From Anaerohalosphaeraceae bacterium (lineage in GTDB: Bacteria > Planctomycetota > Phycisphaerae > Sedimentisphaerales > UBA12454): DNA of 64,000 bases. Made by a program: the position numbers and the translations under genes. The stretch lies in contig JAIORA010000042.1 of NCBI GenBank assembly GCA_021108375.1, positions 73,046-137,045 of the forward strand. Reading direction: 5' to 3'. This document shows positions 1 to 62,518 of this stretch, piece after piece (the first letter of the stretch is position 1; each line of letters starts with the position of its first letter). The notes under the pieces are model-generated. The model worked only from the letters and a program-made list of their open reading frames with translations. It did not search any database and was not told where the DNA came from.

Positions 1-137
1 CCCCTGATGAATCAGGGGGCTTTCGTCATCGCGAGGCCGTGCTTTTTATTAAAAATCCATCCCGATTTATCGGGATTCCTTAACTCAAAACTAAGGACTC
101 AAAACTCAAAACTACTCTGTATTCTTCAAGGCGAACA
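1..137. repeat. Intergenic hairpin-module block 3' of the last pseudopilin gene
   Basis: CCCCTGATGAATCAGGGGG hairpin (1-19). ATCCCGA-TTTA-TCGGGAT hairpin (~59-76). CTCAAAACT-type microsatellite (~83-113). The same modules recur in 13 other gaps. Confidence 0.85.
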
Positions 138-971
138 TTATTTTCTGTTTTCTTCATCATCAAAAAATTCGTCAGTTACATCATTAACATCGTTCACATC
201 GCCCGGCAGATTACTATCATTCGCATCGTTAGCATCATCTTCGTACATATCCGCAATCTCATTAGCATCCGCGAATTCTGTCTTGATAAACTTATATGTC
301 AACTGCCTTGCCCTGTTGACCGCAATCGTTCTGAAAATAATATCCTCTTCAGGCACAACCATATTACCGCTAATGTCCTCTGCCATATTGGCAAAAGACA
401 ACGAAACCTTCACCGCCAGCGGCAGTGCCTTCTTGTCCCACTTCTGGCTAATCTCTTCGCCTTTAACAGTTTCAATTTTGAACATCGTAACCCCCGAACA
501 GACCGGCACAAACTTTTCGAGTTCCAGCGAGTCCTTGGTCTCATCAAGCATTTTATCTTCCAGCGAATATCCGCTATGCGCGCGGTATATTATCAGCCCG
601 TTTGCATCGACATTTGCCCTGCTCTGCCATACTATCCTGTCAAAAACCTGTTCTTTGCTGTCCTTATCGTAAATTTTATTTTCGATAATCATCTGCGCAC
701 TGTTATATCCGCCCTCTTCGATTTTGTTTTTTATGGTCATCATAATATCCGCTCCCGAAAGAGCCGTCCGGTCGATGTCCTCTGCGAGCCTCTGCAAAAT
801 TTCCATATCGAGCCTTCCGCTCTGGAGCTGGCGATTTACAGAATTGGCCGCCTGGCGCATACGGATATAAATCCCCCCCACCGCCGCCAGCAGCATCGCC
901 GAAATGGTCAACACCGCCATCAACTCCGCCAGCGTAAAACCGTAACAAGTTTTGTTATTCAGTGTTTTCAT
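138..971 (-). CDS. Minor pseudopilin (prepilin-type N-terminal cleavage/methylation domain) with an acidic D/N/E-rich C-terminal tail
   Basis: ORF 138..1205 trimmed to the internal ATG at 971. MKTLNNKTCYG|FTLAELMAVLTISAMLLAAV is a class III signal peptide with Glu at +5. It starts 4 nt after the stop of the upstream pseudopilin gene. Confidence 0.75.
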   Translation of the reverse strand: MKTLNNKTCYGFTLAELMAVLTISAMLLAAVGGIYIRMRQAANSVNRQLQSGRLDMEILQRLAEDIDRTALSGADIMMTIKNKIEEGGYNSAQMIIENKIYDKDSKEQVFDRIVWQSRANVDANGLIIYRAHSGYSLEDKMLDETKDSLELEKFVPVCSGVTMFKIETVKGEEISQKWDKKALPLAVKVSLSFANMAEDISGNMVVPEEDIIFRTIAVNRARQLTYKFIKTEFADANEIADMYEDDANDANDSNLPGDVNDVNDVTDEFFDDEENRK

Positions 972-975
972 TTCT

Positions 976-1626
976 TTAAGGCCCCATAACTGCCGGCCAA
1001 AATTCCTCTTCAGGAACATCACCCCAGGAATCGTAACCCGCAGGTGGCGGACCAAAATATTTCTCAAAGTCCTTCCACATATCAATCTCTGGGTCTGTGT
1101 CCGGCTCCTGATTCGGGTCAGCGTCCGGGTCTTCTTCCGGCTCCTGGTCAGGGTCGAGTTCGTCGAGCTGGTTTTCGTATTCTTTCTGCCTTTCCTTCTG
1201 CTCAAGAATCTGTTGGAGTTGCTTCTTGCTTAGGCTGCTGAGCCAGTGTTCCAGTTCCACTTTCTGGACTTGGCCTTCGGTATCGAAATATTCTGCAGAA
1301 CATACAGCCCGAATCCACATCCGGTTTGTTATTGGCTCATAAAACGATTCGATTCTCTTTTCCCAGTTAATGTCCGGGTGCATTTCGCTTTGGCCGTATT
1401 CAAGAATGTCGCTTACACTCTCCTGCGCCAAGATATTTTCCATATTCTCTCTGGATATTTCGAACGCCTCGGCCTTAGCCTGCCAGTTTATAACAGCATC
1501 ACTAATTCGTTTCATCACAACCATTACCGACCCTGCAATCATCGTCAGTATCACCATTGCTACGACAACTTCAATAAGGGTAAACCCTTTATCACCCCAA
1601 CAAATTTTATATCGTATTTTCCGCAT
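976..1626 (-). CDS. Minor pseudopilin (prepilin-type N-terminal domain) with a D/E/P-rich C-terminal region
   Basis: N-terminus MRKIRYKICWGDKG|FTLIEVVVAMVILTMIAG (G-FTLIE motif plus hydrophobic helix). Lies in the gsp cluster. Confidence 0.8.
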   Translation of the reverse strand: MRKIRYKICWGDKGFTLIEVVVAMVILTMIAGSVMVVMKRISDAVINWQAKAEAFEISRENMENILAQESVSDILEYGQSEMHPDINWEKRIESFYEPITNRMWIRAVCSAEYFDTEGQVQKVELEHWLSSLSKKQLQQILEQKERQKEYENQLDELDPDQEPEEDPDADPNQEPDTDPEIDMWKDFEKYFGPPPAGYDSWGDVPEEEFWPAVMGP

Positions 1627-1955
1627 TCTTTCATTTAGCCCCCTGATGAATCAGGGGGTTTTAGTTAGCCCCACATTTACAAATGTGGGGTTGCAGTTTA
1701 CTTTATCTTTTTACTTTTTTAAAATCCGCGTAATCCGCGAAATCCGCGGTTAAAATAATTCGTAAAAATCTGTGTTTATCAGTGTTCATCTGTGGCTAAA
1801 CAATCCGTCTCGGCCAAAGGCCGAATCCTCAACTCAAAACTAAAAACTCAAGACTCATAACTATTTCTTTTGTCATACCCGCGAAAGCGGGTATCCATTT
1901 TTCTGTATTTCCTTTTTTTCTCTGTGAACTCTGTGTTCTCTGTGGCTATTTGTTT
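1627..1955. repeat. Intergenic hairpin-module block
   Basis: CCCCCTGATGAATCAGGGGG (1639-1658). CCCCACATTTACAAATGTGGGG (1669-1690). ATCCGCG x3 module. TCGGCCAAAGGCCGA hairpin. CTCAAAACT microsatellite (~1829-1862). ACCCGCGAAAGCGGGT hairpin. Confidence 0.85.
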
Positions 1956-2528
1956 TTAAAATCCCATTTCGTCCTGCGTTCTGGTTTCGAGCAGTTCAAC
2001 GTCTCCACCTCTAAGTTCGATTATTCTGTTGAGCCGGTTTATCACTATCGAGTACAGATTGCCGCCATCATCTGAGACCACTACTTTACCGCCATACTGC
2101 CATCCACTCTTACTGCACCTAAACAATGCTGGTGCTTCGTTTGTCCACTCTCCGTCATCGAACATCACGTATGACAGTTGAAAGCTATCATTGAATTCGC
2201 CTCGTGTGATAATTTCCTCTTCTTTTATATCTTCAACCGCAACCAATCCCGTTGTTATCTCGCGCAGCAGGTAGGAATTTTGTGAAAAATCGATAACGAC
2301 TTCGTATCTCCTGTCGGTTTGTGCCGAGGTTGTAACTGCCATTTTGAACAGCCTCACAAGGTCATTGGCCCTTGCTCTGAAGCTATTGCTTGATGCCGTC
2401 GTTGCGAAATTAATCATCACCAGCGAGGTAATCATCGCCACGATGAACACTACCATTATAACCTCAGCCAGCACCGCCCCGGCCGGGGCGGTTTTCCCCC
2501 GACACATTTTCCGCTTTCGCATTCTCAT
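1956..2528 (-). CDS. GspH-like pseudopilin (prepilin-type N-terminal domain)
   Basis: N-terminus ...TAPAG|AVLAEVIMVVFIVAMITSLVM has Gly at -1, Glu at +5 and a hydrophobic helix. It follows gspG in the cluster, the position typical of gspH. Confidence 0.65.
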   Translation of the reverse strand: MRMRKRKMCRGKTAPAGAVLAEVIMVVFIVAMITSLVMINFATTASSNSFRARANDLVRLFKMAVTTSAQTDRRYEVVIDFSQNSYLLREITTGLVAVEDIKEEEIITRGEFNDSFQLSYVMFDDGEWTNEAPALFRCSKSGWQYGGKVVVSDDGGNLYSIVINRLNRIIELRGGDVELLETRTQDEMGF

Positions 2529-2994
2529 TTTTTTTAGTCCCGCTTCATCGGGATTCGCGCTTACGAATGGTTTATATCTTACATATTCCCGTTTAGCCCC
2601 CTCATCACTATGAGGGGGTTTTTATTTGTTTTATCTTTTTACATTTCAAACTTTTAACTCTTTAAACTAAATTGACTTGTTCAACTTCAGTTGAACTTAT
2701 GCAAATAAACGAGAATTTTTGCAGATGCTTGCATCGTAAAAAAATTCAAGTGAATATGCAAAAGTCAATTTTCTTTGTGTCCTCTGTGTTCTCTGTGGCT
2801 ATTCATTTTTTAAAATCCGCGTAATCCGCGAAATCCGCGGTTAAAATAATTCGTAAAAATCTGTGTTTATCAGTGTCCATCTGTGGCTAAACAATCCGTG
2901 TCTAATTTAAATAAACCAGTCTCGGCCAAAGGCCGAATCCTCAACTCAAAACTCAAGACTAATAACTCATAACTACTAAGCACCTCACGGGCAC
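2529..2994. repeat. Intergenic hairpin-module block with a unique core (~2640-2760)
   Basis: CCCCCTCATCACTATGAGGGGG hairpin (~2595-2616). ATCCGCG x3 module (~2813-2840). TCGGCCAAAGGCCGA. CTCAAAACT-type microsatellite (~2940-2978). The non-repeat core carries a GTTCAAC-TTCA-GTTGAAC palindrome. Confidence 0.8.
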
Positions 2995-3432
2995 TTAGTA
3001 AGCGTCCGTGCTGTACAGGTCTGTGTCGTAATCTTCGCCGCCTTCCTGTCCATCAGCGCCATAACTTACAATAACATAATCTCTGCCGCTTTCGGGGTAT
3101 CGAATATAATCAAATTCATTGCTCCAGGCATCTCTCGGCAACTCCGTCGTATTAAGATACCCGCCCGGCTGCCATCCTATAATATCTGTCGGCTCTTCGA
3201 TTAGTTCGAGCAGCCCCTGTTCTTCGTCGGGATACTGACCGGTATCCATTTTGAATTGAGCGACCGCACTGTCGAGCATTTTGAGGTTAGCCCGTGTCGT
3301 TGTAACCCTTGCCTTATCTGTTTGGCCGAGAAAGTTCACTGCACCTATCGCTGCCAGCAATCCTATAATGATGATAACTGCCATAATTTCGACGAGCGTA
3401 AAACCTGTTCTGTTTTGTCTTTTGTTTTTCAT
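2995..3432 (-). CDS. gspG: Type II secretion major pseudopilin GspG
   Basis: MKNKRQNRTG|FTLVEIMAVIIIIGLLAAIGAVNF... followed by QFKMDTGQYP and WG..Y.Y-type GspG core motifs. ORF trimmed to the ATG at 3432. Confidence 0.9.
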   Translation of the reverse strand: MKNKRQNRTGFTLVEIMAVIIIIGLLAAIGAVNFLGQTDKARVTTTRANLKMLDSAVAQFKMDTGQYPDEEQGLLELIEEPTDIIGWQPGGYLNTTELPRDAWSNEFDYIRYPESGRDYVIVSYGADGQEGGEDYDTDLYSTDAY

Positions 3433-3489
3433 ATCTAACCTTCCGCAAAATTGAATTTTCAATATATTTCTTATTTTAGGATAGCGTTA

Positions 3490-4695
3490 TCAAAAGCCTC
3501 CCGATGAGTACCTCAAAATCGGCAGCAGCGAAGCCATCGCTATCAGCCCCACAAAAAACGCCATCACAACAATAATCAAAGGCTCAAGTGCCGCGCTAAG
3601 CCTTTCGACAACAATATCCGAGGACGATTCAAGACTATCGCTTATACTCTTTAGCATCGTAACCAGTTCACCGCTTTTTTCGCCGACCGCCACCATATGG
3701 GCGATTGCCGGGTCTATAACGCCACTTTCCCGCAGGGGCGTAGCGATGTCGGCACCGGAGAGTATTCGGTCGCGTGCTTTTTTAACCGCGTCTGCCATTA
3801 TCACATTGCCGGTAACCTCAGCCACAACCTTGAGCGATTCAGCCATACTGAGTCCTGACCCTAACAGCGTTGAGAGCGTCGAGGCAAATCGCGACACAAC
3901 ATTCTGTTTCAGTAAAGGCCCGAATATCGGCAGTGCCAGCATCGTCTTATCCCGCAGCCTTGCCCCTCTTTGGGTCTTGAAAAACTTCCGCACCGACCAC
4001 ACAACAACCATTATCACCGCAAGTATTGCCCACCAGTAATGTATCAGCATATAGCTGACGGACATCATCGCTTTGGTAATCCAGGGCAGTTCCATCCCGG
4101 TCTTTGCAATTTGGGTAATTATTTTCGGCAGCACGAATGTCGTCAAAATCACGATTGCGATGATACCTATCACAACGATACACATCGGATAAACCATTGC
4201 GGTCGTTATTTTCGATTCGATTCTCTTCCGCTTTTCCATAAACGCTGAAATCGTTGCCATCGTCTTGGCCAGCGTCCCGGTTGCTTCGCCGACTTTTATC
4301 ATACTTATATATATAATATCGAAATATTCGCCATAATCGCCCATCGTGTCCGCGAATGATTCGCCGGTAATAATTCTATCGCGAATATCGGTAATAACAT
4401 TTTTGAATTTCACTTCCGAGGTCTGTTCGATAAGCACTGAAAGCGACTCGGTCAGTTTAATCCCTGAGTTGAGCAGTATCGACATCTGTTTTGTAAATTC
4501 TATTATATGGCTTTTTTTTGTCCGCCCAAAAACCCCGCCCTTGCCCCCTGCCTCAGCGGCATTTTGTTTTATGCTCGTCGGATGCACACCCCTTGCTCGC
4601 AGTTGTTTGCGAGCCGAGTACGCACTTTCTGCCGTAACGGTTCCTTTAACCGCCTTTCCGCCGGGGCCCAGTGCTGTATAAGTAAATCGAGGCAT
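3490..4695 (-). CDS. gspF: Type II secretion inner-membrane platform protein GspF
   Basis: 401 aa with a duplicated GspF/PilC domain and three TM segments. N-terminus MPRFTYTALGPGGKAVKGTVTAES is typical of the family. Confidence 0.9.
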   Translation of the reverse strand: MPRFTYTALGPGGKAVKGTVTAESAYSARKQLRARGVHPTSIKQNAAEAGGKGGVFGRTKKSHIIEFTKQMSILLNSGIKLTESLSVLIEQTSEVKFKNVITDIRDRIITGESFADTMGDYGEYFDIIYISMIKVGEATGTLAKTMATISAFMEKRKRIESKITTAMVYPMCIVVIGIIAIVILTTFVLPKIITQIAKTGMELPWITKAMMSVSYMLIHYWWAILAVIMVVVWSVRKFFKTQRGARLRDKTMLALPIFGPLLKQNVVSRFASTLSTLLGSGLSMAESLKVVAEVTGNVIMADAVKKARDRILSGADIATPLRESGVIDPAIAHMVAVGEKSGELVTMLKSISDSLESSSDIVVERLSAALEPLIIVVMAFFVGLIAMASLLPILRYSSGGF

Positions 4696-4883
4696 AAAAA
4701 AGTTTCGCCCAAAGGGCGGTTCCTTAATTTTGATTTTTAACTTTTTATTTTTTTAAAATCCGCGTAATCCGCGAAATCCGCGGTTAAAATAATCTGTGTA
4801 AATCAGTGTTTAAATAAACCAGTCTCGGCCAAAGGCCGAATCCTCAACTCAAAACTAAGGACTCAAAACTCAAAACTATTTAT
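4696..4883. repeat. Intergenic hairpin-module block
   Basis: ATCCGCG x3 module (~4752-4790). TCGGCCAAAGGCCGA hairpin. CTCAAAACT microsatellite (~4843-4877) ending 4-6 nt from the gspE stop. Confidence 0.85.
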
Positions 4884-6584
4884 CTAACCGTCTGACTGTG
4901 TAACTCTCAGTACTTCTGCGATGGTTGTAATCCCAGCCACAACTTTCCTCGCTCCGTCCATCCTCAGCGTCTGCAATCCCGCGTCGATAGCCTTCTGCTT
5001 AATCACGCCGGCACTTTGCCTTGAGTGAATCAGGTCTCTAACCGTTTCATCTATCAGCATAAGCTCATAGATTCCAGCCCTGCCTTTGTAGCCGGTATCG
5101 AAACATTTACTGCATCCTGCGCCGACATAGAAATCGCAGTCAGCTTTATCGACAGCGATTCCGATTTCGCGAAGTTCGCGCTCGCTCGGCTCATATTTCT
5201 GTTTACATTCCGGGCAGACTCTCCGCACAAGCCTCTGCGCAAGCACCGCAATCAGCGATGAGCTTACGAGGTAAGGCTCAACCCCCAAATCCAGCAGCCT
5301 GCTTATCGCCCCCGCAGAATCGTTGGTATGCAGCGTACTGAAAACAAGGTGTCCCGTCAGCGATGATTGTATCGCCATCCTCGCCGTCTCCTGGTCTCGA
5401 ACTTCACCAACCATAATAACATCCGGGTCCTGCCGCAATACGTGCCTCAGCGCCGTAATAAACGTCATACCCTTCTTCGTCGCCACCTGCATCTGGCTAA
5501 TCCCATCGAGCTGATACTCGATTGGGTCTTCAATTGTTATAATATTTTTCTGAACGGAGTCCATCCTGTTAAGGCTCGCGTAAAGCGTCGTACTCTTTCC
5601 ACTACCGGTCGGCCCGGTAACAAATATAACACCGTGCGACCTGCTCAGCAGCGAGTCGAATCGCTTCAGCTCATCTTCCATCATCCCAAGCTCGCTAAGA
5701 TTGAAAATCCCACTGCTCTTATCCAGCAGACGCAGCACACTTCGCTCGCCATAACTTGTAGGCACGGTACTAACACGCAAATCGATTTCGCGATTACCCA
5801 CCCGCACCGAGCACCGTCCGTCTTGCGGCATCCTTCTCTCGGCGATGTCCATTCCCGCCATAACCTTAATACGCGAAACCACCAGGGGCAGTACGTTGCG
5901 GTTAAGACTCAGCGTATCGTAAAGAATACCATCGATTCGATAGCGGATTTGTATCTTCGTTTCGTAGGGATGAATGTGAATATCGCTCGCCCGCAACTGC
6001 AGCGCACGAAACAGTATGTCATTAACCAACCTGATAACTGGAGGCCGGTTCACAACATCCAGCAAATCGTCAGCGGTGGCAACCTCATCAACAAGCTGGT
6101 CGAGATTCTGCGAATCAAGCTCTTCGGCGACATCATCGATAACCGTTGACTTCTGCTCGTACGCGACATCGATTGCCGCCGTTATCGCAGTCCTGTTCGC
6201 CAGCGCAATCCGTACCGGCGAGCCTGTCAGCCGTGAGACATTATCTGCCGAATCCGTATCGAAGGGCTTGGACAGCACAACCGTCAGTTCAGGGTCGTCC
6301 TCGTCGGGGTGAAGCCCGATAAGATAATGATGTTGAGCGTAGCTTGCCGGCACTTTTTCGACAAAAACTGTCGGCACATCAGCGGTATCTATTTCGTCGA
6401 AATACTCAAGCCCCAGCACGTCAGCAAATAGTTTAAGTACTGCGTCTTCGGTAAAATGCGGACAGCTAAGCAGCATCTCATCAAGGCGGGCAAGGTTGGC
6501 AGAGTTCTGTTCTAAATATGAGACCAGCATATCCGCATCGACTACGCTTGTCCTTTGTGCTGTCTTTATCAACAAATCTTTCAT
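4884..6584 (-). CDS. gspE: Type II secretion ATPase GspE
   Basis: Walker A GPTGSGKST, Asp/His boxes and a C-terminal CPECK...CSKC tetracysteine motif. ORF trimmed to the ATG at 6584 because the extension runs into a repeat module. Confidence 0.92.
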   Translation of the reverse strand: MKDLLIKTAQRTSVVDADMLVSYLEQNSANLARLDEMLLSCPHFTEDAVLKLFADVLGLEYFDEIDTADVPTVFVEKVPASYAQHHYLIGLHPDEDDPELTVVLSKPFDTDSADNVSRLTGSPVRIALANRTAITAAIDVAYEQKSTVIDDVAEELDSQNLDQLVDEVATADDLLDVVNRPPVIRLVNDILFRALQLRASDIHIHPYETKIQIRYRIDGILYDTLSLNRNVLPLVVSRIKVMAGMDIAERRMPQDGRCSVRVGNREIDLRVSTVPTSYGERSVLRLLDKSSGIFNLSELGMMEDELKRFDSLLSRSHGVIFVTGPTGSGKSTTLYASLNRMDSVQKNIITIEDPIEYQLDGISQMQVATKKGMTFITALRHVLRQDPDVIMVGEVRDQETARMAIQSSLTGHLVFSTLHTNDSAGAISRLLDLGVEPYLVSSSLIAVLAQRLVRRVCPECKQKYEPSERELREIGIAVDKADCDFYVGAGCSKCFDTGYKGRAGIYELMLIDETVRDLIHSRQSAGVIKQKAIDAGLQTLRMDGARKVVAGITTIAEVLRVTQSDG

Positions 6585-6629
6585 TGGATATATACCTGTT
6601 CCGCATAATGCCCTTGTCATTTCGACCAA

Positions 6630-7093
6630 CGCGGAGAAATCTTATTTTTGATTAGCCCGTAGAGCCTGCCCTGAGCGAAGCCGAATGGGTCTTGCCCTGC
6701 GGGTATTCGCATATTTTACTATCTCGTTCGCACCGCATAAAAGCCGAGCGACGTAAGTCGCCGGAATAGTTAGCCTTGTCATTACTATGGCAGAGTTATC
6801 CTTTCATTTAGCCCCCGAATTACAATTCGGGGGTTTGTACTTTCGTATGATTTATATCTTACATATTACCGTTTAGCCTCGGCCGGCACGGCCGAGTTAT
6901 TTAGCCCCCTGATTCATCAGGGGGTTGTTGTTTATCTATCCCCACATTTGTAAATGTGGGGTTGCAGTTTGCTCTTATCTTTTTGCTTTTTTAAAAATCT
7001 GTGCAATCTGTGAAATCAGTGTCTAAAAAAATAAAATCACTTCGGCCGTTAGGCCGACTCCTCAACTCAAAACTAAGAACTCAAAACTCAAAA
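6630..7093. repeat. Intergenic hairpin-module block
   Basis: Tandem hairpins: CCCCCGAATTACAATTCGGGGG (6812-6833), CTCGGCCGGCACGGCCGAG, CCCCCTGATTCATCAGGGGG (6905-6924), CCCCACATTTGTAAATGTGGGG (6940-6961). CTCAAAACT microsatellite (~7061-7095) abuts the gspD stop. Confidence 0.85.
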
Positions 7094-10000: not shown

Positions 10001-10573
10001 AACAAGAGTCTCTGCCGGAGCGATTACAATTTGCCTGCCGTTCAAGGATTCGATTATAACTTTTTTCGCAAGCTGACGACTCGGCGCAGAACTTAGAGAA
10101 CCAACAGAAAACCCTCTGCCCAATTCTGCTTCTAACCGCTCTGGCAAAACTTCTGCCGAACCTGCGGGCAAATCAGAAATATCCATACTGTAAACTGTAA
10201 CCGAATCAATCATCCGCAATAGCGTACTGGCAAAAACAAGTGCTTCCGGCTTACCGGTTACACTCAGAGCACTGGTTCCGGGAATAGAAAAAACGCTGTC
10301 GCCGATTTTGGCACCCGCAAGAAACTTCTTAGCTTCATCAGTGCCAAGATGCCTGAGATTAAATATCCGAACGCGCACCGGAGTTGATATATTGGGGTCA
10401 GCGCAGTAACTGCCGCTGGCATTGAACAACAACACCAGAAGAAACACCCAAATACTCTGCCGTCTAAAAGACTTACCGGCCAAACGATTTATCAACATTT
10501 TGCTCTCCGAAACTCTTACCTCTACCTTGTTGCCTGCTTTTAACTTGCTATCCACTGTCTTTTTATCGGACAA
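7094..10573 (-). CDS. gspD: Type II secretion outer-membrane secretin GspD (unusually long, 1159 aa)
   Basis: C-terminal secretin core (...PQVLIDVSLVEI...VPILGGLFRS...). Multiple N-domains. Signal peptide after an alternative start at ~10498 (MLINRLAGKSFRRQSIWVFLLVLLFNASG). Confidence 0.9.
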   Translation of the reverse strand: MSDKKTVDSKLKAGNKVEVRVSESKMLINRLAGKSFRRQSIWVFLLVLLFNASGSYCADPNISTPVRVRIFNLRHLGTDEAKKFLAGAKIGDSVFSIPGTSALSVTGKPEALVFASTLLRMIDSVTVYSMDISDLPAGSAEVLPERLEAELGRGFSVGSLSSAPSRQLAKKVIIESLNGRQIVIAPAETLVKVLEQINKLKSQPVVVEASPSIIPSAVAADDVNAAGNPYIIESPNVPAVVSSAAVESAVVIGEDEMLGDLLDELAENEPVVVSAEPVIEPEIVIEGFVEPSGLVELEPVVVENYGTFEPEPEQESEPEQNLDEMIAAKVKAILEQMNLGQTAPAEQNSVREPSAEVVEEIAVAEVNEANEITLVSARVAMDIPNGEQTIDLDLPEKLEIVTLIELVGKYMNLDYLYDGNKIKGDVRIKIQGRLKIRELYDLLENVLKFKGLVMSRKGDLVIIAPAAEILEQDPSFGDDPLKPGDVIVTNVFKLEHISTDAAKNLLGGMKFATNVTPIPETGTLVITDYAFRMQRIEDLLELVDVPGPPKKFKLRVLKYTLAESLVPKVQALAEQLGTVDITVGSGAPKTPLEKKRAARRKRAAREDPDTQVMRPRAQGKNQTSVYIDFDKRTNRVMMIGMAGEIATVDGIIDSLDVPQQDLRAIQEYELQYIDTVTVVDSLKNFGIIESDSSGQSGTAKRSSGKARRGANPQGEAPSSADGGAGSSGLVTIDQPQVVELETTNSLLVNATPEQHIQIARVISYVDREPLDEAIPFRIYRLENQEPEELAGVINDLIEKTIKDEKGKVQKKVTREEDIAVVADKNTFSLIVYANKRNQEWIANLIKTLDKRRPQVLIDVSLVEIDRDDDFEYDLSIVANATNLATGNIAITGNQLIKTAVGSVIEGGFNLTDATGANTKSVQGFYNAGKMQMLMRLLDKRGYGRVLAQPKVLVNDNELGLIQTTQKTHVKKEDVTYPGDPPLQKITVTWEPYEAKIELKITPQISEGDLLRLEIEMIREDFVETLEGPPDYTTSNVNTVVTVPDGSTIILGGLTKLNQTKAGSKIPGLGDVPILGGLFRSVDNANDEKRLYIFVKANILRPDVEEGLEQLKDISRKNRATFEKYEDQFQKHESFPGVKPTPIEPLNVLDDIRGGEEENN

Positions 10574-10659
10574 AACGACTCAAAGCCTTAAAAATAATAT
10601 AGTTATGCCCGATTTTGAAACACCCAAAATTCGCCTGAAGCAGAGTTCTGCCGTTAAAC

Positions 10660-11661: not shown

Positions 11662-11863
11662 AATGCTTTATATCAATCGTATAAAAAATGCGATGGACTT
11701 TTGCGGCAACCTGTTTTTCGCCTTTAAGTTATGAACGCAAAACGCACATTTCACCACCCTAAAGGGCGTAAGGTTTCAATAGAGTTATCGGCAAAATACC
11801 CTGCTTCTTTTGACATTAAATTCGCATTTTTGTTCCGATAATTACAAAAAAATAAACGATTTA

Positions 11864-50779: not shown

Positions 50780-50840
50780 TACCAAGTCGTCATCTTTTGC
50801 GATGCACTAAAGAGCGATTTTCCTGTAACCAGCAATATAA

Positions 50841-55471: not shown

Positions 55472-55893
55472 TTTGGTTGTAAACACCGCAGGGACAAGTG
55501 AAACCGCAAGGCCGGGGCCCACCCTTTCCCATCGCCGTTTAGCCCCCTGCAATGCTTGGGGGTTCGTGCTTCCATCTCGTTTATCCCGTTCCCACCACCG
55601 TTTAACCCCCTGCATTGCAGGGGGGGGTCTTGTTGTCATTGCAAGGCCATTAGCCCCTGGGTCTTGTCCCGGGGGTATCTGCATATTTTCTATCCCGTCC
55701 GCATAAGACTCTGTCATTGCGAGGCCTTGCTTTTTATTAAAAATCCATCCCGATTTATCGGGATTCCTTAACTCAAAACTAAAGACTCAAGACTCATAAC
55801 TATTTTTCTGTCATACCCGCGAAAGCGGGTATCCATTTTTTTACTTTTTTTAAAATCCGTGTTTAAATAATTTGTGTTTATTCGCACTTGATA
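55472..55893. repeat. Intergenic hairpin-module block
   Basis: TTAGCCCCCTGCAATGCTTGGGGGTT, TAACCCCCTGCATTGCAGGGGGG and TTAGCCCCTGGGTCTTGTCCCGGGGGT hairpins. ATCCCGATTTATCGGGAT. CTCAAAACT microsatellite (~55768-55801). ACCCGCGAAAGCGGGT. Confidence 0.85.
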
Positions 55894-57237
55894 TTACAGA
55901 TTCTTTGCAATAACTTCAGCGGCTTTTATTAGCGGGTACGCTGTCGGCGGCCCTGTAAGCAACGGATGTGTTCCAATCTGTGCGGTCAGAATGGAATTTA
56001 TACTCATTCGATTCTGAATAATAATCCCGATTAGATTTGTAAGCTCTCCCACACTCAGGCCACCAGCCACCTCGCCTCCAAGAACCACGCCTGACTCTTT
56101 GGCAACAATTAATTTCATAAACTGTTTATGTGTATCCGACAAAGCTCCGGGGTGTTTGTCAACACCTTCAAAGCTGCCTGTTACAACATCAAAGCCTTCT
56201 TTTTTCGCGGTTTCTTCAGTTAATCCCGCTGCTCCGAAACCCGTTCCGCCAATAGCAGTCGAAAAGATAGCTATTGTCCCGCTTAGTACTTTGAGTGTCG
56301 AAAGTTTATATAAATTCATACCTGCCACTCTTGCCTCAGCACAAGCGGTAGAAGCAAGCATAACGCCGCTGTGTTTTCTGGTAATAAAATCACGCTTTTC
56401 AGCACAGTCGCCAACAGCAAAAATGTCGGAGTTTTCGGTTCTCATATACTCATCAACTGCAACAAAACCTTTGTCAGTGATATTCAGGCCGGCTTCTTTT
56501 GCCAGCACAGTATTGGGCGTATATCCCATTGACAGGATTACAGCGTCTGCTTCAATTGTTTCCGAATTGTTCAGCAAAACCCCGCTGACCTTACCGTTAC
56601 CGATTATTTCCTTAACACCACTGCTGGTTTTGAGATGAACTCCTCTTTCCTGAAGCAGCCCTTCCGCTATAGTCGCAAATTCTTTATCAAAAGCAAGACC
56701 CAGGATGTTTGGCAATATCTCAACCAAAGTTACATCTTTATCTCGCTTGTTCAACTCATCGGAAATCTCAACACCTATAAATCCCGCGCCAACAGTTATA
56801 ATCTTTTTGAAGCTATTTATCTTATCCAAAACTTTAGATATATACTCTTTATCTTTAGGAATAACAAAAACATTATCAAGGTCGGCACCTTTGAGCCATT
56901 TAGGAACGGAAGGAGATGACCCTGTCGCAAGAACCAATTTTTCAAAACTGATTGTTGTACCGTCTTTAAGCAGACAGGTTTTTTCACTTTGATTAATTTC
57001 AACAGCCTGGCCAACCATTAAATCCACACCAGCCTTAGACAGTCCCGCATCTGGTATGATATTTTTTTCGATGCTGTCCAGAGAGCCGAATATGTATGGA
57101 ATCCCACACGGAACCAAAACCTGTTCTTCTTTGCGAATCAGCAGAACACTTTTTTTGGGATAATTACTTTTTGCCGTTATCGCCGTAACAATACCTGCCG
57201 CACTTCCGCCAATTACTAATACATCTGTCTTTTTCAT
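55894..57237 (-). CDS. FAD-dependent pyridine nucleotide-disulfide oxidoreductase (NADH oxidase / CoA-disulfide reductase family)
   Basis: VLVIGGSAAG (FAD GxGxxG). Candidate redox Cys in VLVPCGIPY. Second Rossmann ITVGAGFIGVE. AVGDC motif. Trimmed to the ATG at 57237. Confidence 0.85.
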   Translation of the reverse strand: MKKTDVLVIGGSAAGIVTAITAKSNYPKKSVLLIRKEEQVLVPCGIPYIFGSLDSIEKNIIPDAGLSKAGVDLMVGQAVEINQSEKTCLLKDGTTISFEKLVLATGSSPSVPKWLKGADLDNVFVIPKDKEYISKVLDKINSFKKIITVGAGFIGVEISDELNKRDKDVTLVEILPNILGLAFDKEFATIAEGLLQERGVHLKTSSGVKEIIGNGKVSGVLLNNSETIEADAVILSMGYTPNTVLAKEAGLNITDKGFVAVDEYMRTENSDIFAVGDCAEKRDFITRKHSGVMLASTACAEARVAGMNLYKLSTLKVLSGTIAIFSTAIGGTGFGAAGLTEETAKKEGFDVVTGSFEGVDKHPGALSDTHKQFMKLIVAKESGVVLGGEVAGGLSVGELTNLIGIIIQNRMSINSILTAQIGTHPLLTGPPTAYPLIKAAEVIAKNL

Positions 57238-57297
57238 AATATCTGTTTTCCTTAAATTTGTTAACGGTACAATTCTGCTAAAACTAGCATTATACAT

Positions 57298-57933
57298 TTA
57301 AAATTGGCTCAAGGGAACCTTTTTTTACCGCATAAAATTTCTATTCCATTCCGATTCACTGGGATTTGTGCTTACATCTGTCCTGACCGATGGTTTGTAG
57401 TTAAATTAGCCCCCTGCACTGTAAGGGGTTTTCTTTTCACGAATTGATTATCCCGCCCACATCGCCGTTTAGCCGTCGTGGCCTGCCCGACGGTTCATTT
57501 TTGCGAATGGCAATTCCTTATTTAACCCCCTGATGAATCAGGGGGTTGTTTGTTTAGTTAGCCCCCGATTTGTAAATCGGGGGTTCGTGCTTACATTTTT
57601 TCTATTCCCTCCGCACAAGACCCTGTCATTTCGACCAACGCGGAGAAATCTAAACCCTGTCATTGCGAGGCTTTACTTTTTATTGAAAATCCATCCCGAT
57701 AAATCGGGATTCCTCAACTCAAGACTCATAACTATTTTTTTGTCATACCCGCGAAAGCGGGTATCCAATTTTTATAAATCAGGTCTCGGCCAGAGGCCGA
57801 TTCGATATTCAATCTACTGTCTTCTGCCTTCTGTATTCTATATTCCTAAAAAAAAATCCGTGTAATCTGCGAAATCAGCGGTTGAGATAATCTGTGTCAA
57901 TTCGTGGCTAATTTCTTCTGTCGGACACCTTTA
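57298..57933. repeat. Intergenic hairpin-module block
   Basis: AGGGAACCT solo terminus (~57313). CCCCCTGATGAATCAGGGGG (57526-57545). CCCCCGATTTGTAAATCGGGGG. GTCATTTCGACCAACGCGGAGAAATC. ATCCCGATAAATCGGGAT. ACCCGCGAAAGCGGGT. TCGGCCAGAGGCCGA. Confidence 0.85.
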
Positions 57934-58968
57934 TCATTTGTAATTTCTGCCTGTTTCCATAAAAGCGAGCATATTCTTCAATGGTGTACCGGGCGGCAAA
58001 TCACAGGCTGTACTTAAAATGAAATTTGGATAATCTTTCATTTGAGTGAGCAACTCTGTTGTGGCCTGTTTAACTTCCTCAACGATACCATCCTTCATAA
58101 CTTTTGTTGGATTAACATTGCCGATAATCGCAATATCTTCGGGCACCATTTGAGCAACTTTTGCAAGGTCAATACCTGCGTCAGGCGAATCAAGACTTAT
58201 CGCTCCCACGCCTATCTGAGACATCGCTTTTACAAGATGCATAGTATTGCCGCAGATATGATAAATAGTATCTACATTACTATACTTATAACTTTCAATA
58301 ATATGTTTAACATATTCTCCGCTGAATTGGCTGAACTGCTCCGGGCCGAGTATAGCGGCAGTTGGCTCAAGAATACAGATTAAATCAGCTCCGGCATTGA
58401 TAAGAGCCTGGGTGTACTCCATAATAATCGAAGTGCAAAACTGACAGGCACACTCAAGTTTATCAGGGTCTATCATCGAGTCCATTGCGGCATTCTGTGC
58501 TCCCATCAACAGGCCGGCAAAGGAAAATGGTCCTATTACATAAGCTCCAACCAGAACATCTTTCTTAAGTCCAAGCCTCATCATTTCAATCGTTTTTAAA
58601 TACGACTGAATCCTCGCGTCGGCAAGGATGTTAATACACCGATACCTGTCGAGGTCTTCCACCGTTTTAACCGGATGAAGTTCAACGCTGCTGGATTCAT
58701 TAGTTGGGAATCTGACCGGCAAACCAATCGCATTGGCCTCTACCGATAAATCCATCATCATAAAAACAGCATCTGGTTTCAAGTGATAGGCCAATGCTTC
58801 GATTGCGTTGTAATGCATAGCATGATTCTGCTGAGCCATTTTTATCGAACATTTTATAATATCACATCCTGGAAATCCCACTAACGGTGCCACAAGCCTT
58901 CTGTTTTCGGAGTAGGCCCGCTTCGACAATTCTGATAGTTTTACGCTGTTTAAAGCTCTCTTAATCAT
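57934..58968 (-). CDS. Uroporphyrinogen decarboxylase (URO-D) family protein, MtaA/CmuA-like methyltransferase type
   Basis: 344 aa with URO-D fold features (...RLVAPLVGFPG..., ...ILEPTAA..., ...HICGNT...). Substrate unknown. Confidence 0.7.
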   Translation of the reverse strand: MIKRALNSVKLSELSKRAYSENRRLVAPLVGFPGCDIIKCSIKMAQQNHAMHYNAIEALAYHLKPDAVFMMMDLSVEANAIGLPVRFPTNESSSVELHPVKTVEDLDRYRCINILADARIQSYLKTIEMMRLGLKKDVLVGAYVIGPFSFAGLLMGAQNAAMDSMIDPDKLECACQFCTSIIMEYTQALINAGADLICILEPTAAILGPEQFSQFSGEYVKHIIESYKYSNVDTIYHICGNTMHLVKAMSQIGVGAISLDSPDAGIDLAKVAQMVPEDIAIIGNVNPTKVMKDGIVEEVKQATTELLTQMKDYPNFILSTACDLPPGTPLKNMLAFMETGRNYK

Positions 58969-58999
58969 TAGTTATCCTGACAATTTCTATAAAAAAACA

Positions 59000-59162
59000 A
59001 GGGTAGCTCTAATAATTGCTTTTGAGCGGCAAGTAGGAAATTTTTGTTCGCTGACAAGGAAGGCAAATCAGCTTGAGCCGTAGTTCAAGTGGCTTTTGCC
59101 TGACACCGTTCAGCGACAAAAAGGTTCGTTTGTCCGCCAAAATGAATTTTTAGAGGTTCCCT
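59000..59162 (+). mobile_element. 163-bp MITE-like element, copy 2
   Basis: AGGGTAGCTCTAATAATTGCTTTTGAGCGGCAAGTAGGAAATTTTTGTTCG ... GTTTGTCCGCCAAAATGAATTTTTAGAGGTTCCCT. Collinear with copy 1. Confidence 0.75.
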
Positions 59163-61673: not shown

Positions 61674-61744
61674 TATTGCTCATCGTTATGATTTGGGCAT
61701 TTTTCAACTGACCTTTGCGGAACACACAAGGCCTCCCAGCTGAA

Positions 61745-62083
61745 TCAATGGTCACAGATATTATTTCCTGTCTGAAGTGTATCCTGCAAATAAGCGGCTA
61801 CAAGTTCTTCGGGCGTACCTGATGATGCGCCGACAACAACTTTAATGTCATTCTGCGTAAACAACTGCTGCGCTCGCTGCCCCATACCGCTGGCAATAAT
61901 AACATTTACTCCCATACCGCCAAGCCATTTTGGTAATACGCCCGGCTCGTGAGATGGCGGAGCAAAATCTTCACGGTTTGCGATTTTGGTGGAATCTGCG
62001 TCGGTATCAATCACTGCAAACTGGTCGCAATGGCCGAAATGAAGACTTAATTTTCCCTGTGCTAACGGAATTGCTATTCTCAT
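61745..62083 (-). CDS. NifB/NifX-family (dinitrogenase FeMo-cofactor-binding-like) small protein
   Basis: MRIAIPL..GKLSLHFGHCDQFAVIDTD...VIIASGMGQRA...L...GI.V is the pattern of the NifX/NafY-like domain. Confidence 0.75.
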   Translation of the reverse strand: MRIAIPLAQGKLSLHFGHCDQFAVIDTDADSTKIANREDFAPPSHEPGVLPKWLGGMGVNVIIASGMGQRAQQLFTQNDIKVVVGASSGTPEELVAAYLQDTLQTGNNICDH

Positions 62084-62134
62084 TTTACTGTACTCCTTTT
62101 TAATGGTTTCAATTTATTTTATACCAATACTAAT

Positions 62135-62211
62135 GGGCACCTCTAAAAATTCACTTTGGCGAACAAGCGAACCTTTTTACTTGTCGCTCAAAAGCAATTA
62201 TTAGAGCCACC
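62135..62211 (-). mobile_element. Miniature (~77-bp) derivative of the 163-bp MITE-like family
   Basis: GGGCACCTCTAAAAATTCACTTTGGCGAACAAGCGAACCTTTTT + ACTTGTCGCTCAAAAGCAATTATTAGAGC. Both TIRs are kept and ~85 bp of the core is absent. Confidence 0.7.
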
Positions 62212-62215
62212 TTAA

Positions 62216-62518
62216 TTTATTAAGTGCGCCGTTGTCATTGCGAAAGATACAAATCATTCGCAACGCCGTGGCAATCTCGTTTTAAATTAACCTTTCACAT
62301 CGCATAGAAACCGAGCGACGTAAGTCGCCGGAATATTTAGCCCCCGGGTCTTGTCCCGGGGGTACCTACGCATTGTTTATCCCGTATTTACCGTAGGGGC
62401 GATTCGTGAATCGCCCCCTTGTCATTTCCGCGAAAGCGGGAATCCATCTTTTTACTTTTAGGTTTTTACTTTTTTAAATCTGTGAAATCAGTGTCTAAAT
62501 AATTCGTGTTTGCTTCCA
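62216..62518. repeat. Intergenic hairpin-module block
   Basis: ATTAAGTGCGCCGTTGTCATTGCG. TTAGCCCCCGGGTCTTGTCCCGGGGGT. GGGGCGATTCGTGAATCGCCCC. TTCCGCGAAAGCGGGAA. ATCTGTGAAATCAGTG. Confidence 0.85.

Follow-up and report, generated by a model that had tools for sequence, protein, structure and literature searches.

An intergenic mosaic of small repeats that mostly follows the direction of transcription in a planctomycete contig

Background

In a 64,000-nt stretch of the genome of an uncultured Anaerohalosphaeraceae bacterium (Planctomycetota), hereafter the window, many intergenic gaps are built from the same short hairpins and repeats, which poses the question whether these modules function in the RNA of the upstream gene or are DNA elements that accumulate between genes. 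A sequence-only reading of the window took the strand bias of the modules to argue for an RNA-level role, analogous to REP/BIME elements, and against neutral debris. As shown below, the observation is real but overstated, and is confirmed in part.

Repeats between genes and their polarity

The repeats are nearly all intergenic, with no copies in divergent gaps. Self-BLAST of the whole window assigned 3031/10254 intergenic bases to repeats versus 197/53746 coding bases, and AGTTTTGAGTTRAGGA occurs 9 times at <=2 mismatches, compared with 0.14 expected from shuffles. The 14 gaps reported to hold the mosaic (some 5 kb, about 8%) all exist and total 5339 nt, or 8.3% of the window, and each of the named modules was found there (Table 1); some of the borders stand, whereas public gene calls move others to 6585-7093 (the gspE gap), 11662-12872 (the gap said to start at 12180) and 62084-62518 (the last gap). 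The statement that the mosaic fills nearly every sizeable gap goes too far: modules are present in only 14 of the 25 gaps of >=150 nt (13 mosaics and one solo hairpin), and all 6 divergent (promoter) gaps of >=100 nt are free of them. The Fisher p is 0.016, which falls to 0.003 with the inclusion of two gaps that have degenerate modules. One short gap, 33770-33884, was missing from the earlier list.

Repeats are expected to break assemblies, and short Logan contigs of an independent run, SRR15668623 (2002, 1600 and 2444 nt), end near repeat-filled gaps. That the mosaic is an artefact of assembly or binning, with chimeric joins at the repeats, is nevertheless barely credible, given that the same 85-kb contig with intact syntenic genes is found in ENA and NCBI, that each gap has unique flanks and its own module order, and that the same module types are present in related genomes.

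Module polarity is uniform within gaps, such that heptamer blocks (10/10), strict triples (10/10) and intergenic GGGCTAA sites (21/21) all fit the sense of their gap. In the 73 kb that were read, 12 of the 13 unambiguous tandem gaps are in sense (hand-computed two-sided binomial p ~0.003). The exceptions to polarity are a gap that is inverted as a whole (12180-12872), as previously described, in which the T-tracts point toward the transcript of gene 12873-13574, and a gap of mixed polarity (39555-39812).

Table 1. Gaps of the window that contain repeat modules, with the strand that the modules follow
Gap or feature	Strand	Context	Modules (positions)
1-137	-	after pseudopilin-like gene 138-972; gap extends 132 nt further, left of window	hairpin remnant 1-18; partial GTCAT module 25-38; ATCCCGA/TCGGGAT hairpin 59-76; heptamer block 79-113
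1627-1955	-	in sense order, from stop to next gene start	CACAGAG triple 1920-1944; SRM 1871-1898; heptamer block 1828-1862; hairpin 1810-1824; triples 1768-1794, 1724-1748; CTAA-tagged hairpins 1667-1692, 1637-1660
2529-2994	-	after gspG	heptamer block 2940-2974; hairpin 2922-2936; triples 2859-2885, 2815-2839; CTAA-tagged hairpin 2595-2620
4696-4883	-	after gspE	heptamer block 4843-4877, 6 nt past stop; hairpin 4825-4839; CGCGGATT triple 4758-4782
6585-7093	-	after secretin gene	heptamer block 7061-7095, TAG stop inside first unit; hairpin 7042-7057; triple 6997-7021; four CTAA/TTAG hairpins 6810-6961; GTCAT...ATC module 6615-6642
12180-12872	+	two minus-strand genes flanking	~12 modules, all plus-oriented; SRM-like hairpin 12263-12290; GTCAT...ATC modules and CTAA hairpins (12642-12843)
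15419-15880	+	after dus	heptamer block 15421-15462, 2 nt past stop; hairpin 15465-15480; SRM 15581-15608 (GTCAT strand minus); GATTGCC...GCAATGACA module 15656-15683; CCGGCCGC module 15693-15715; CTAA hairpins 15753-15774, 15818-15840
17742-17960	+	after lepA	3-unit heptamer block 17743-17763, 1 nt past stop; SRM 17788-17815; GATTGCC module 17863-17890; hairpins 17893-17916, 17934-17955
18837-19199	+	convergent, HTH-S24 gene (+) / dprA (-)	all plus sense: triples 18848-18874, 18991-19016; SRM 18947-18974; GATTGCC module 19030-19057; CTAA hairpins 19097-19116, 19161-19177 (the latter terminator-like for dprA)
33770-33884	-	short gap	degenerate CTAA-tagged hairpin and CCGGC..GCTCGGCT module, sense
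37483-37501	+	6 nt past ORF 37216-37476	solo hairpin GGATTCGGCCTTTGGCCGG
39555-39812	mixed	between gene 38034-39554 and tmRNA	GTCAT...ATC modules at 39577 (minus) and 39653 (plus); triple-type unit; CCGGCCGC module
46289-46675	-	after arginine-kinase-like gene 46676-47725	near-SRM 46610-46635; heptamer block 46567-46601; hairpin 46547-46564; TTAG hairpin with T-tract 46343-46370
55473-55893	-	convergent, tRNA-Arg (+) / oxidoreductase gene 55894-57297 (-)	SRM 55809-55836; heptamer block 55767-55801; hairpin 55747-55764; partial GTCAT module; three CTAA/TTAG hairpins 55519-55675
57298-57933	-	after URO-D-like gene 57934-58968	triple 57856-57880; hairpins 57786-57800, 57693-57710; near-SRM 57741-57768; 3-unit heptamer block 57713-57733; GTCAT...ATC module 57624-57651; four CTAA/TTAG hairpins 57404-57585
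62216-62518	-	after gene 62519-63406	triple-type unit 62477-62504; SRM 62420-62447; GC hairpin 62396-62417; CTAA hairpin 62341-62362; GTCAT module 62233

A heptamer block at the ends of genes

The element that had been called a microsatellite is, rather, a discrete block of 35 nt that comprises five AGU-N4 units, ends with GAGGA and is followed on the 3' side by a GC hairpin of 6-7 bp and then a T-rich tail, for an overall layout of U-rich stretch, hairpin and T-rich tail. The unit count is exactly 5 in 7 of the 10 copies, and AGT is invariant in 47/47 units, the other positions being variable. With a period of 7 nt, the units are not in phase with the DNA helix. Eight arrays, all minus-strand, follow the stops at 138, 1956, 2995, 4884, 7094, 46676, 55894 and 57934; the other two, plus-strand, follow dus and lepA. 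The claim that all 10 are in sense with the upstream gene withstood scrutiny: each reads AGUUUUG in that sense, as does an 11th array on the same contig, to the left of the window (11/11; two-sided p = 0.001). The claimed location just after the stop codon is accurate for 6 of the 10, which lie at -2 to +24 nt, but not for the remaining 4, which are 74-200 nt downstream of the stop with other modules in between. The solo hairpin said to obey the same rule is indeed in place, on the plus strand past an ORF of 86 aa without Pfam support.

The block regions do not consistently outperform shuffles in predicted folding (z-scores from +0.6 to -3.2), and the G-U versus A-C counts in the block-attached hairpins, 5 versus 1, are too small to decide. 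With their short stems and interrupted T-tracts, these hairpins would be weak terminators at best. Nevertheless, the heptamer block and the first hairpin at the stop-codon edge, always in sense and adjoining stops both here and in other phyla, are probably an RNA 3'-end module, and to this extent the proposed RNA-level role is plausible. The block could present a U-rich platform, unstructured and with triplets at a regular period, to an RNase or a protein that binds single-strand RNA, and the hairpin that follows it could serve as a weak terminator or a stabilizer.

A known system with a similar pattern is HutP, which binds XAG triplets with U4 spacers located 5' of a GC-rich terminator stem (PMC2425495). 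In the block, (U/G)AG triplets, spaced by 4 nt that are mostly U, occur five times immediately upstream of a GC hairpin with a T-rich tail. However, the likeness is of pattern only, a second XAG site such as the hut terminator has 3' of its stem is lacking, and the elements follow genes instead of residing in leaders. It seems very unlikely that an RNA-binding protein, ring-shaped or oligomeric, binds the block and controls the adjoining hairpin, so as to make termination or antitermination at the ends of genes conditional by the logic of HutP or TRAP.

Hairpins with features of DNA elements

Judged by its sequence, the ACCCGC-GAAA-GCGGGT module is firmly identifiable as an NTS/SRM hairpin, here in the form TGTCAT-WCCCGCGAAAGCGGGW-ATCC. 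Six sites in the window match the published SRM pattern, versus 0.33 in shuffles, and 26 of the module's 28 positions agree with the NTS consensus, among them the critical C that follows the palindrome; looser relatives have the GTCAT...ATC frame in common. The NTS/SRM hairpins are published recognition sites of the Ssn GIY-YIG single-strand DNA nucleases, and the ligand documented for the module is one of single-strand DNA that does not bind RNA. In the window, GTCAT invariably lies on the template strand, and in tandem gaps from 120 metagenome loci, exact SRM copies have no orientation bias (13 sense and 11 antisense). No Ssn nuclease or RAYT transposase was found in the 73 kb of readable sequence.

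The TTAGCCCCC palindromes belong to a CTAA-tagged, C-rich, REP-like family that is enriched in Planctomycetota: the tagged share of hairpins is 14/46 in the window and 7/20 in the contig extension versus 4/607 at unrelated loci, and tagged hairpins are present in other Planctomycetota as well. The triple direct repeats have a period of 9-10 bp. In 37 of the 46 hairpins, the T-tract is on the antisense strand, the 9 exceptions being those that belong to a heptamer block, and in a terminator scan of positions 1-20000, 19 mosaic sites faced antisense and 8 faced sense. The hairpin at 17934-17955 is a strong terminator-like site that faces minus, with -21.3 kcal/mol for the TTAG strand versus -17.3, followed by UUUUGUUUU. 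The predicted fold stability of the gap RNAs is equal for sense and antisense.

Copying and turnover

Between gaps, multi-module blocks share 93-98% identity (1715-1811 and 2806-2902; 15576-15687 and 17783-17894; 25-114 and 55713-55802). In relatives with 92-80% LepA identity, the orthologous lepA gaps lack the mosaic, with alignment confined to the promoters and a single AGTTTTGAG unit. The promoter-like sites of lepA (15888-15915) and of the S24 gene (17989-18016, after the lepA mosaic) are conserved in a relative, and both are downstream of the mosaic. In other Planctomycetota, the relative orientation of the block, the CTAA hairpins and the GTCAT modules is kept, 8 to 1, and heptamer blocks at these loci do not adjoin the ends of long ORFs. 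In other phyla, heptamer blocks that start <=30 nt from the stop codon of ORFs of >=200 aa are in sense in 31 cases and antisense in 4, although the blocks there come in inverted pairs, so that "sense" is partly geometric. Identical heptamer-block 37-mers are common to different phyla, and no recurring protein family was found beside the blocks in other genomes.

These data bear on the view that all modules are selected 3'-UTR RNA elements of the upstream gene, be it stabilizers, processing sites or protein platforms. The polarity of the tandem gaps, the placement of the mosaic between stop and next promoter for dus/lepA and lepA/S24, and the predicted stability of the hairpins are compatible with it; furthermore, where an SRM hairpin, 8 nt, the heptamer block and its hairpin succeed one another, a cut in the U-rich block would leave hairpin-protected ends. 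We nonetheless consider this view decidedly unlikely because the SRM is a known target of single-strand DNA nucleases, the extra pairs and T-tracts are mostly on the antisense strand of the hairpins, fold energy has no strand asymmetry, one gap is inverted and one mixed, and the absence of the modules from orthologous gaps counts against an RNA role for the mosaic as a whole, of which the strand bias is no proof.

At the other extreme, the repeats could be purely selfish or neutral DNA without any RNA role that spreads through single-strand DNA processes (nucleases of the Ssn or HUH type, recombination, copying of blocks). Polarity would then reflect survivorship, with the loss of copies in which T-tract hairpins or a C-rich, G-poor strand would terminate sense transcripts and of copies with the cleavable strand exposed as the non-template strand. 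The presence of the SRM, the near-identical blocks, the quick turnover, the 37-mers shared across phyla along with the inverted-pair (MITE-like) forms, the T-tracts of tandem gaps on the strand that would not terminate flanking genes, the constant template position of the GTCAT strand and the inversion of 12180-12872 as one block all fit this scenario. Yet, for dus, lepA and the S24 gene, each with a promoter of its own on the downstream side of the mosaic, there is no need to preserve read-through, and polarity is kept all the same. The anchoring of the heptamer block to stop codons in several phyla, its invariant AGT with variable spacers, which indicates recognition rather than slippage, and the failure to find a mobilizing gene in the 73 kb read or among the block neighbors in other genomes also speak against it, and overall this scenario appears rather unlikely.

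DNA elements with a probable RNA-level edge

The interpretation that we favor, and to which we give about an even chance, is that the gaps hold a lineage-specific, fast-changing array of at least four small-repeat families, the polarity of which follows transcription, with the heptamer block and its hairpin functioning as a 3'-end module. The four families are the heptamer block with its hairpin, the NTS/SRM hairpins with their GTCAT...ATC relatives, the CTAA palindromes and the triples. The array is alike in kind to the intergenic mosaic elements NIME of Neisseria and BIME of E. coli; the REP/BIME likeness and the rejection of neutral debris in the sequence-only reading hold, inasmuch as divergent gaps are avoided, polarity is shared and the local gene direction is followed.

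The data establish what the modules are, how they are placed and oriented, that they turn over and that T-tracts favor one strand; the manner of spread and all effects at the RNA level are inferred. The repeats would be non-autonomous DNA elements that are copied as multi-module blocks, turn over among close relatives and are retained solely at gene ends. Since the T-tracts of hairpins other than the block-attached ones are on the opposite strand, sense transcripts would pass, but antisense transcripts that arise at the next promoter or from a convergent gene could be halted by these hairpins. The polarity of the first unit suggests that it helps in finishing the RNA of the upstream gene.

Intergenic repeats behind genes

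Analysis of the non-coding parts of the window showed that the patchwork of small repeat modules reported by the sequence-only reading is real, non-random and more structured than that reading had seen. Part of the mosaic consists of a repeat family described before, and its general kind is known; the novel features are the presence, in a planctomycete, of a mosaic that resembles the Neisseria intergenic mosaic elements (NIME), the strict, transcription-linked polarity of this mosaic, a CTAA-tagged family of palindromes similar to the enterobacterial REP elements, and a five-unit heptamer block that is common to several phyla at gene ends.

The window, with a G+C content of 45%, is part of an 85-kb metagenome-assembled contig (ENA ERZ26872896, also in NCBI) and carries, along with the genes listed in the table, a tmRNA, a 6S RNA and two tRNAs. 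The gene that follows lepA was rejected as a signal peptidase gene; its product is an HTH + Peptidase_S24 (LexA/XRE-like) protein. All modules that had been named were found, and the 14 gaps, previously put at about 5 kb or 8% of the window, total 5339 nt (8.3%). In a self-comparison of the window, repeated DNA covered 3031 of the 10254 intergenic bases versus 197 of the 53746 coding bases, and the core AGTTTTGAGTTRAGGA occurred nine times against an expectation of 0.14. The claim that nearly every sizeable gap is filled did not survive: modules are present in only 14 of the 25 gaps of at least 150 nt, and the 11 module-free gaps include every divergent, promoter-only one. Among the gaps of at least 100 nt, modules were detected in 13 of the 21 with a gene 3' end versus none of the six divergent ones (p = 0.016). 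Reading the contig 9 kb leftward yielded three more mosaic gaps and one more heptamer array, in sense, that is, on the strand of the upstream gene. Rfam searches, at the gathering threshold and at E<=1, retrieved no family for any module. When the longest-ORF start (6629) is used, gspE (4884-6629) overlaps a repeat module; public annotation places its start at 6584.

Positions of the features discussed in the text (window coordinates, except for the four loci named as outside the window)
Feature	Position	Strand or polarity	Remark
Type II secretion cluster	138-10573		secretin, GspE, GspF, GspG, pseudopilins
dus, lepA, HTH-Peptidase_S24 gene	14402-18836	plus	gene after lepA at 18060-18836
Mosaic polarity, left region	1-7093	minus	
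Mosaic polarity, middle region	15419-19199	plus	three plus-strand genes
Mosaic polarity, right region	33770-62518	minus	
Inverted gap	12180-12872		
Mixed gap	39555-39812		mixed module orientation
Promoter-like site of lepA	15888-15915		downstream of mosaic
Promoter-like site of S24 gene	17989-18016		downstream of mosaic
Hairpin before the S24 promoter-like site	17934-17955		
Heptamer blocks with predicted internal hairpin	79-113, 4843-4877, 1828-1862		
About 165-nt repeat	50840-51003, 58999-59162		59-nt core again at 11852-11910
Genes behind this repeat	50491-~50808, 57934-58968, 10660-11661	minus	ORF; URO-D-like; third gene
Phased T-tracts	12060-12150		
Promoter, hairpin and T-run	37520-37628		directly before ORF 37629-38021
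Zinc-finger ORF, left of the window (L113)	19740-19920		uncalled, in gap
Inverted block pairs (L051, Thiodiazotropha MAG)	720-4300		MITE-like
Inverted block pair (L014, Abditibacteriaceae MAG)	2860-5880		one long hairpin
CTAA-tagged hairpin (L110, relative with 81% LepA identity)	3325-3349		overlaps URO-D gene end

A nuclease-target hairpin among the modules

The ACCCGC-GAAA-GCGGGT module, when read on the other strand, is TGTCATWCCCGCGAAAGCGGGWATCCAT, identical at 26 of 28 positions to the Neisseria Transformation Sequence (NTS) consensus CGTCATTCCCGCGMAVGCGGGAATCYRG. It has the layout of the Ssn-related motif (SRM), TGTCAT-TCCCGC-GAAA-GCGGGA-ATCC, with GTCAT upstream of the palindrome and C directly after it, and the published SRM pattern, HGTCWYN(0-2)YYVSBRHN(0-5)WNVSBRGN(0-2)RNCYNB, found six sites in the window versus a mean of 0.33 in 100 shuffles. 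The pattern of the Neisseria repeat dRS3 (ATTCCC-N8-GGGAAT) is matched exactly by four copies, and six variants of it were found. The GATTGCC..GCAATGACA and TCTCCGC..TCGAAATGACA modules do not match the published SRM pattern and share only the GTCAT...ATC frame. The small GIY-YIG nucleases Ssn, whose genes (ssnA) often have SRMs on their flanks, target SRM/NTS hairpins in single-strand DNA and are reported not to act on RNA (PMC11893778). A tblastn search with three Ssn-like proteins, taken from metagenome SRM loci and identified as GIY-YIG by Pfam, detected no ssnA in the window, in its contig extension (73 kb altogether) or in the Planctomycetota loci; a strict regular expression for the GIY-YIG motif, run on six-frame translations of all loci, gave no match, and small-ORF clustering recovered Ssn-like genes only in unrelated metagenome loci.

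As described for SRM/NTS and dRS3 (PMC11893778), the repeat is an oriented hairpin that is clustered around genes and found in many phyla. Unlike the published motif, every copy here is placed so that GTCAT falls on the template strand of the genes beside it, and a T5 tract comes after ATCC. At least 120 metagenome contigs, with G+C contents of 33-72%, contain the exact 25-nt SRM core, and a GIY-YIG-domain protein of about 95 aa adjoins the SRM in six of the metagenome loci listed. By rough, ORF-based calls in these unrelated taxa, SRMs were in sense to neighbouring long ORFs in 13 cases versus 11 antisense. A T-tract after the SRM is not general in the 120 metagenome loci examined, and the template-strand GTCAT and T5 tract were not seen in the 120 loci with the same core. 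Because the metagenome loci are unbiased and the T-tract is not general, polarity and T-tract are traits of the copies of this lineage, not of SRMs as such.

In Neisseria, NIMEs are defined as regular arrays of dRS3-RS-dRS3 units, with a 20-bp dRS3 and an RS of about 50-150 bp (PMC1797815). The arrays described here share with them the long intergenic extent, the alternation of GC-rich dRS3/NTS-type hairpins with many AT-richer repeat families, flanking genes that include pilus and secretion genes, and variation of array number and length among related genomes, the orthologous lepA gaps being devoid of modules. They differ in that the SRM-type hairpins, one to three per gap with 40-100 nt of other repeats between them, are mixed with other hairpin families and with the heptamer block, and in that all modules of an array share one polarity, which is linked to the upstream gene; a regular dRS3-RS-dRS3 series is absent from the window's gaps. 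If this assignment holds, arrays of the NIME type, thought to be peculiar to Neisseria, occur in a planctomycete (Anaerohalosphaeraceae) and consist in part of the NTS/SRM nuclease-target hairpin.

In the metagenome loci (L116-L235), the SRM translates into recurring spurious ORF motifs, HSRESGNP on one strand and IPAFAGMT on the other; in practical terms, mosaic repeats break assemblies and yield spurious metagenome ORFs. Behind a small zinc-finger ORF to the left of the window (CPICGK...FCGKRC; YacG-like by eye) come, in sense, an SRM, a hairpin of the CTAA family and a CCGGCCGC module.

CTAA-tagged palindromes and triple units

Each TTAGCCCCC-palindrome-GGGGGTT module is a C-rich palindrome to which four nucleotides, CTAA or, on the complementary strand, TTAG, are added as a tag. 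Of the hairpins in the window, 14 of 46 bear this tag, as do seven of the 20 in the contig extension and hairpins of other Phycisphaerae, Sedimentisphaerales and Pirellulales, compared with just 4 of 607 in unrelated loci. As in REP elements and their mosaics, BIMEs, including the GTAG and CGTC superfamilies (PMC3733652), these are numerous extragenic, GC-rich palindromes of 20-40 bp with an unpaired 4-nt end tag, located 3' of genes between tandem or convergent genes and combining into mosaics. They differ in the tag, which is neither GTAG nor CGTC, and in that copies are co-oriented and do not form the alternating pairs of BIMEs and REPINs. In the public annotation of about 40 kb of the contig, no Pfam label denotes a transposase, the REP-associated RAYT (Y1 transposase) included. 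Three direct repeats with a period of 9-10 bp make up each triple unit (types CGCGGATT, CACAGAT and CACAGAG), and all 10 strict copies are intergenic.

In a relative with 81% LepA identity, a CTAA-tagged hairpin overlaps the end of a coding sequence, because its TAA is the stop codon of a URO-D gene.

The heptamer block

The ten heptamer arrays lie at the places and on the strands previously given, and all read AGTTTTG in the sense of the upstream gene; with the contig extension, the count is 11 of 11 (p = 0.001). That they come just after the stop codon holds for six of the ten, which start within 24 nt of it (-2, 1, 2, 6, 20 and 24), and fails for the other four, which sit behind other modules 74-200 nt away. 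The label of microsatellite has to be abandoned in favor of a discrete block, with exactly five units in 7 of the 10 copies. The AGT of the unit is invariant (47 of 47 units in the window), positions 4-7 vary, and the final unit runs into GAGGA. In nine of the ten copies, a GC hairpin of 6-7 bp with a T-rich tail follows directly; its stem varies among copies (TCGGCC, ATCCCGA, ATCGCC), and G-U versus A-C wobbles in these hairpins number five versus one, too few to use. Folding of the block regions is not consistently better than that of shuffles, and in 2-3 copies the third unit, AGUCCUU, is predicted to be able to pair with the terminal GAGGA. As a method note, sequence reversal is an invalid control for array detection, a reversed heptamer being a cyclic permutation of itself. 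A literature search with the block sequence returned no relevant match.

In three copies (table), the third heptamer (AGUCCUU/AGUUUUU) is complementary, G-U pairs included, to the terminal UAAGGA/UGAGGA, and the small hairpin so predicted would mask the GAGGA, which resembles a Shine-Dalgarno sequence; two copies have fold z-scores of -3.2 and -2.6, and those of the others lack significance.

Two known systems are similar to this block. HutP binds XAG-U4 repeats adjoining a terminator stem (PMC2425495), and the block has a comparable layout, namely (G/T)AG plus 4 nt, five times, with U-rich spacers, next to a GC-rich terminator-type stem. It differs from HutP and TRAP sites in its location at gene ends instead of a leader, in having no known protein partner, and in having no second site past the stem, a second XAG array being absent from the gap sequences. 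TAACTGA heptamer repeats, found in Beggiatoaceae, Cyanobacteria and Bacteroidetes a few nucleotides upstream of start codons (PMC4679880), are likewise intergenic arrays (2-6 units) in distant phyla with no known vector, predicted to be unstructured, with stops in all three frames of one strand only, and proposed as sites for single-strand RNA-binding proteins. By contrast, the unit here is AGTTTTG, the arrays come after stop codons, and their form is that of a five-unit block of fixed size, closed by GAGGA and joined to a hairpin.

A scan for TCCTYAACTCAAAACTMA, with one genome per species, gave at least 104 loci, and about three quarters of those listed are true arrays with more units upstream. 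Further comparable heptamer tandem repeats are the cyanobacterial STRR heptamers. Among the matches listed, true arrays occur in Cyanobacteria, Planctomycetota, Nitrospirota, Acidobacteriota, Thiodiazotropha, Sedimenticolaceae, Abditibacteriota and others, different phyla share identical 37-mers down to the same non-consensus units, and the block starts no more than 30 nt past the stop of an ORF of at least 200 aa in 31 cases versus 4 antisense. Two properties of the block bear on this count. In Thiodiazotropha, Abditibacteriota and Nitrospirota, blocks form inverted pairs, either MITE-like elements or one long gap-filling hairpin, so that the outer block ends read as sense to any gene ending there. 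In addition, many block-to-stop distances in the outside loci are negative, and, because each of the three frames of its sense strand contains TGA or TAG, a block is able to provide the stop codon itself. In other Planctomycetota loci, blocks lie within larger mosaics, not beside long ORFs, and in cyanobacteria the AGTTTTG unit also builds long, true microsatellites. Should its placement beside stop codons in very distant phyla hold, this short, well-defined block would make a testable case for a portable signal of gene ends.

A hairpin behind every block is not a general feature across phyla (25 of 134 blocks). No recurrent protein family was found beside the blocks in other genomes beyond generic kinases and ABC transporters. 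Phage carriage was rejected, with four matches in IMG/VR of which two are real arrays. Inverted block pairs in a Thiodiazotropha genome bracket GC hairpins 130-230 nt apart and occupy entire gaps between gene ends; in an Abditibacteriaceae genome, a block and its inverted copy make one long hairpin from stop to next start.

Polarity and transcription

Within one gap, the module classes have a common orientation, the AGTTTTG strand carrying the CTAA tag and the ...ATGACA end, with GTCAT and TTAG on the opposite strand; the same relative orientation prevails in other Planctomycetota genomes by 8 to 1. In the 73 kb read, 12 of the 13 unambiguous tandem gaps are in sense (two-sided binomial p ~0.003, hand-computed). 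Polarity driven by replication was ruled out: module polarity flips twice in 64 kb with the dus-lepA-S24 genes, and replication direction cannot explain this polarity, which tracks local genes. The gap singled out earlier as an exception is indeed one, wholly inverted; its T-tracts face the transcript of the gene at 12873-13574, and a separate promoter region for the next gene follows. A need for operon read-through as the source of polarity is weakened by the finding that promoter-like sites, conserved in a relative, precede lepA and the S24 gene individually on the far side of the mosaic, which places the mosaic between a stop codon and the promoter that follows.

The hairpins themselves are asymmetric. 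More T is found on the antisense side, within 10 nt after the stem, in 37 of the 46, the nine exceptions being those attached to heptamer blocks. A consensus scan of positions 1-20000 detected 41 terminator-like sites where 23.9 were expected, and those inside the mosaic point antisense in 19 cases and sense in 8. The TTAG strand forms two extra pairs (A-T and G-T) compared to the CTAA strand; in one hairpin (17934-17955), located 32 nt before the S24 promoter-like site and directed away from that site, the TTAG strand folds at -21.3 versus -17.3 kcal/mol and is followed by UUUUGUUUU. Across the 14 gaps, sense and antisense RNA folding energies showed no asymmetry (p = 0.71). For 24 coding segments, each 400 nt long, the predicted fold of the mRNA strand is about 13 kcal/mol more stable than that of the antisense strand, an asymmetry that the mosaic gaps lack.

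The main rival to any RNA function is that polarity is a survivorship effect alone, whereby selection would remove those copies that terminate sense transcripts or expose a cleavable strand as the non-template one. If the strict, transcription-following polarity holds, it is no described property of SRMs and offers a handle on the interplay between repeats and transcription; two possible links are terminator polarity and the access of a single-strand nuclease to an exposed non-template strand.

Turnover of the modules

Multi-module blocks of 80-112 nt are 93-98% identical from gap to gap. Comparison of orthologous gaps, the check proposed earlier, showed that in relatives with 92, 87, 81 and 80% LepA identity, the lepA gaps are short and devoid of the mosaic, with single modules elsewhere in these genomes. 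The only gap parts that align with the 92% relative are the promoter-like sites and one AGTTTTGAG unit after the lepA stop. Near-identical blocks along with absence from the lepA gaps of relatives are the look of mobile or recombining repeats, not of site-specific conserved regulatory RNAs.

A proposed two-layer model

We propose that the mosaic combines two layers. At the DNA level, the gaps would be NIME- or BIME-like arrays of non-autonomous hairpin repeats, with at least one family belonging to the Ssn system, that spread and reshuffle as blocks and persist nowhere but behind genes. As for RNA, the best candidate for a working element would be the block with its hairpin at the stop-codon edge. 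With a 7-nt period, the invariant AGU cannot fall on one face of duplex DNA, and an invariant triplet with a variable spacer is, by analogy, a putative signature of oligomeric single-strand binders such as HutP. AGUUU fits the preference of RNase E, and a U-rich stretch followed by a hairpin and a U-tail is the layout of Hfq-binding modules. The remaining hairpins would be transparent to sense transcription and could stop antisense transcripts that originate at the following promoter or in a convergent gene, as with dprA at 19158-19180. Judging from the nucleotide sequence, such sense-transparent, antisense-stopping hairpins, along with an RNA role of the block and its hairpin, appear to be the most likely explanation.

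A bolder proposition, which we consider improbable, is that the block (five AGU-N4 units with the GAGGA end) and its hairpin are a horizontally spread, stop-anchored "gene-end" RNA element that is read, in single-stranded form, by an oligomeric, triplet-recognising protein or an RNase. The range claimed for this element, among the matches listed, comprises Planctomycetota, Thiodiazotropha, Sedimenticolaceae, Acidobacteriota, Nitrospirota, Abditibacteriota and Cyanobacteria. Such a portable module, if real, would set 3'-end formation or processing.

Other sequence features nearby

A repeat of about 165 nt, with 85% identity between its two copies and no Rfam match, lies, with its separate core, just upstream of three minus-strand genes and may be a common promoter or 5' leader. 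Upstream of the promoter region of the last of these genes, phased T-tracts, which the minus strand reads as A-tracts and which recur at intervals near 10 and 21 nt, look like curved DNA. Elsewhere in the window, a hairpin and a T-run come after a near-consensus promoter (TTGACA-17-TATAAT) and directly before an ORF, forming a predicted attenuator-like leader.
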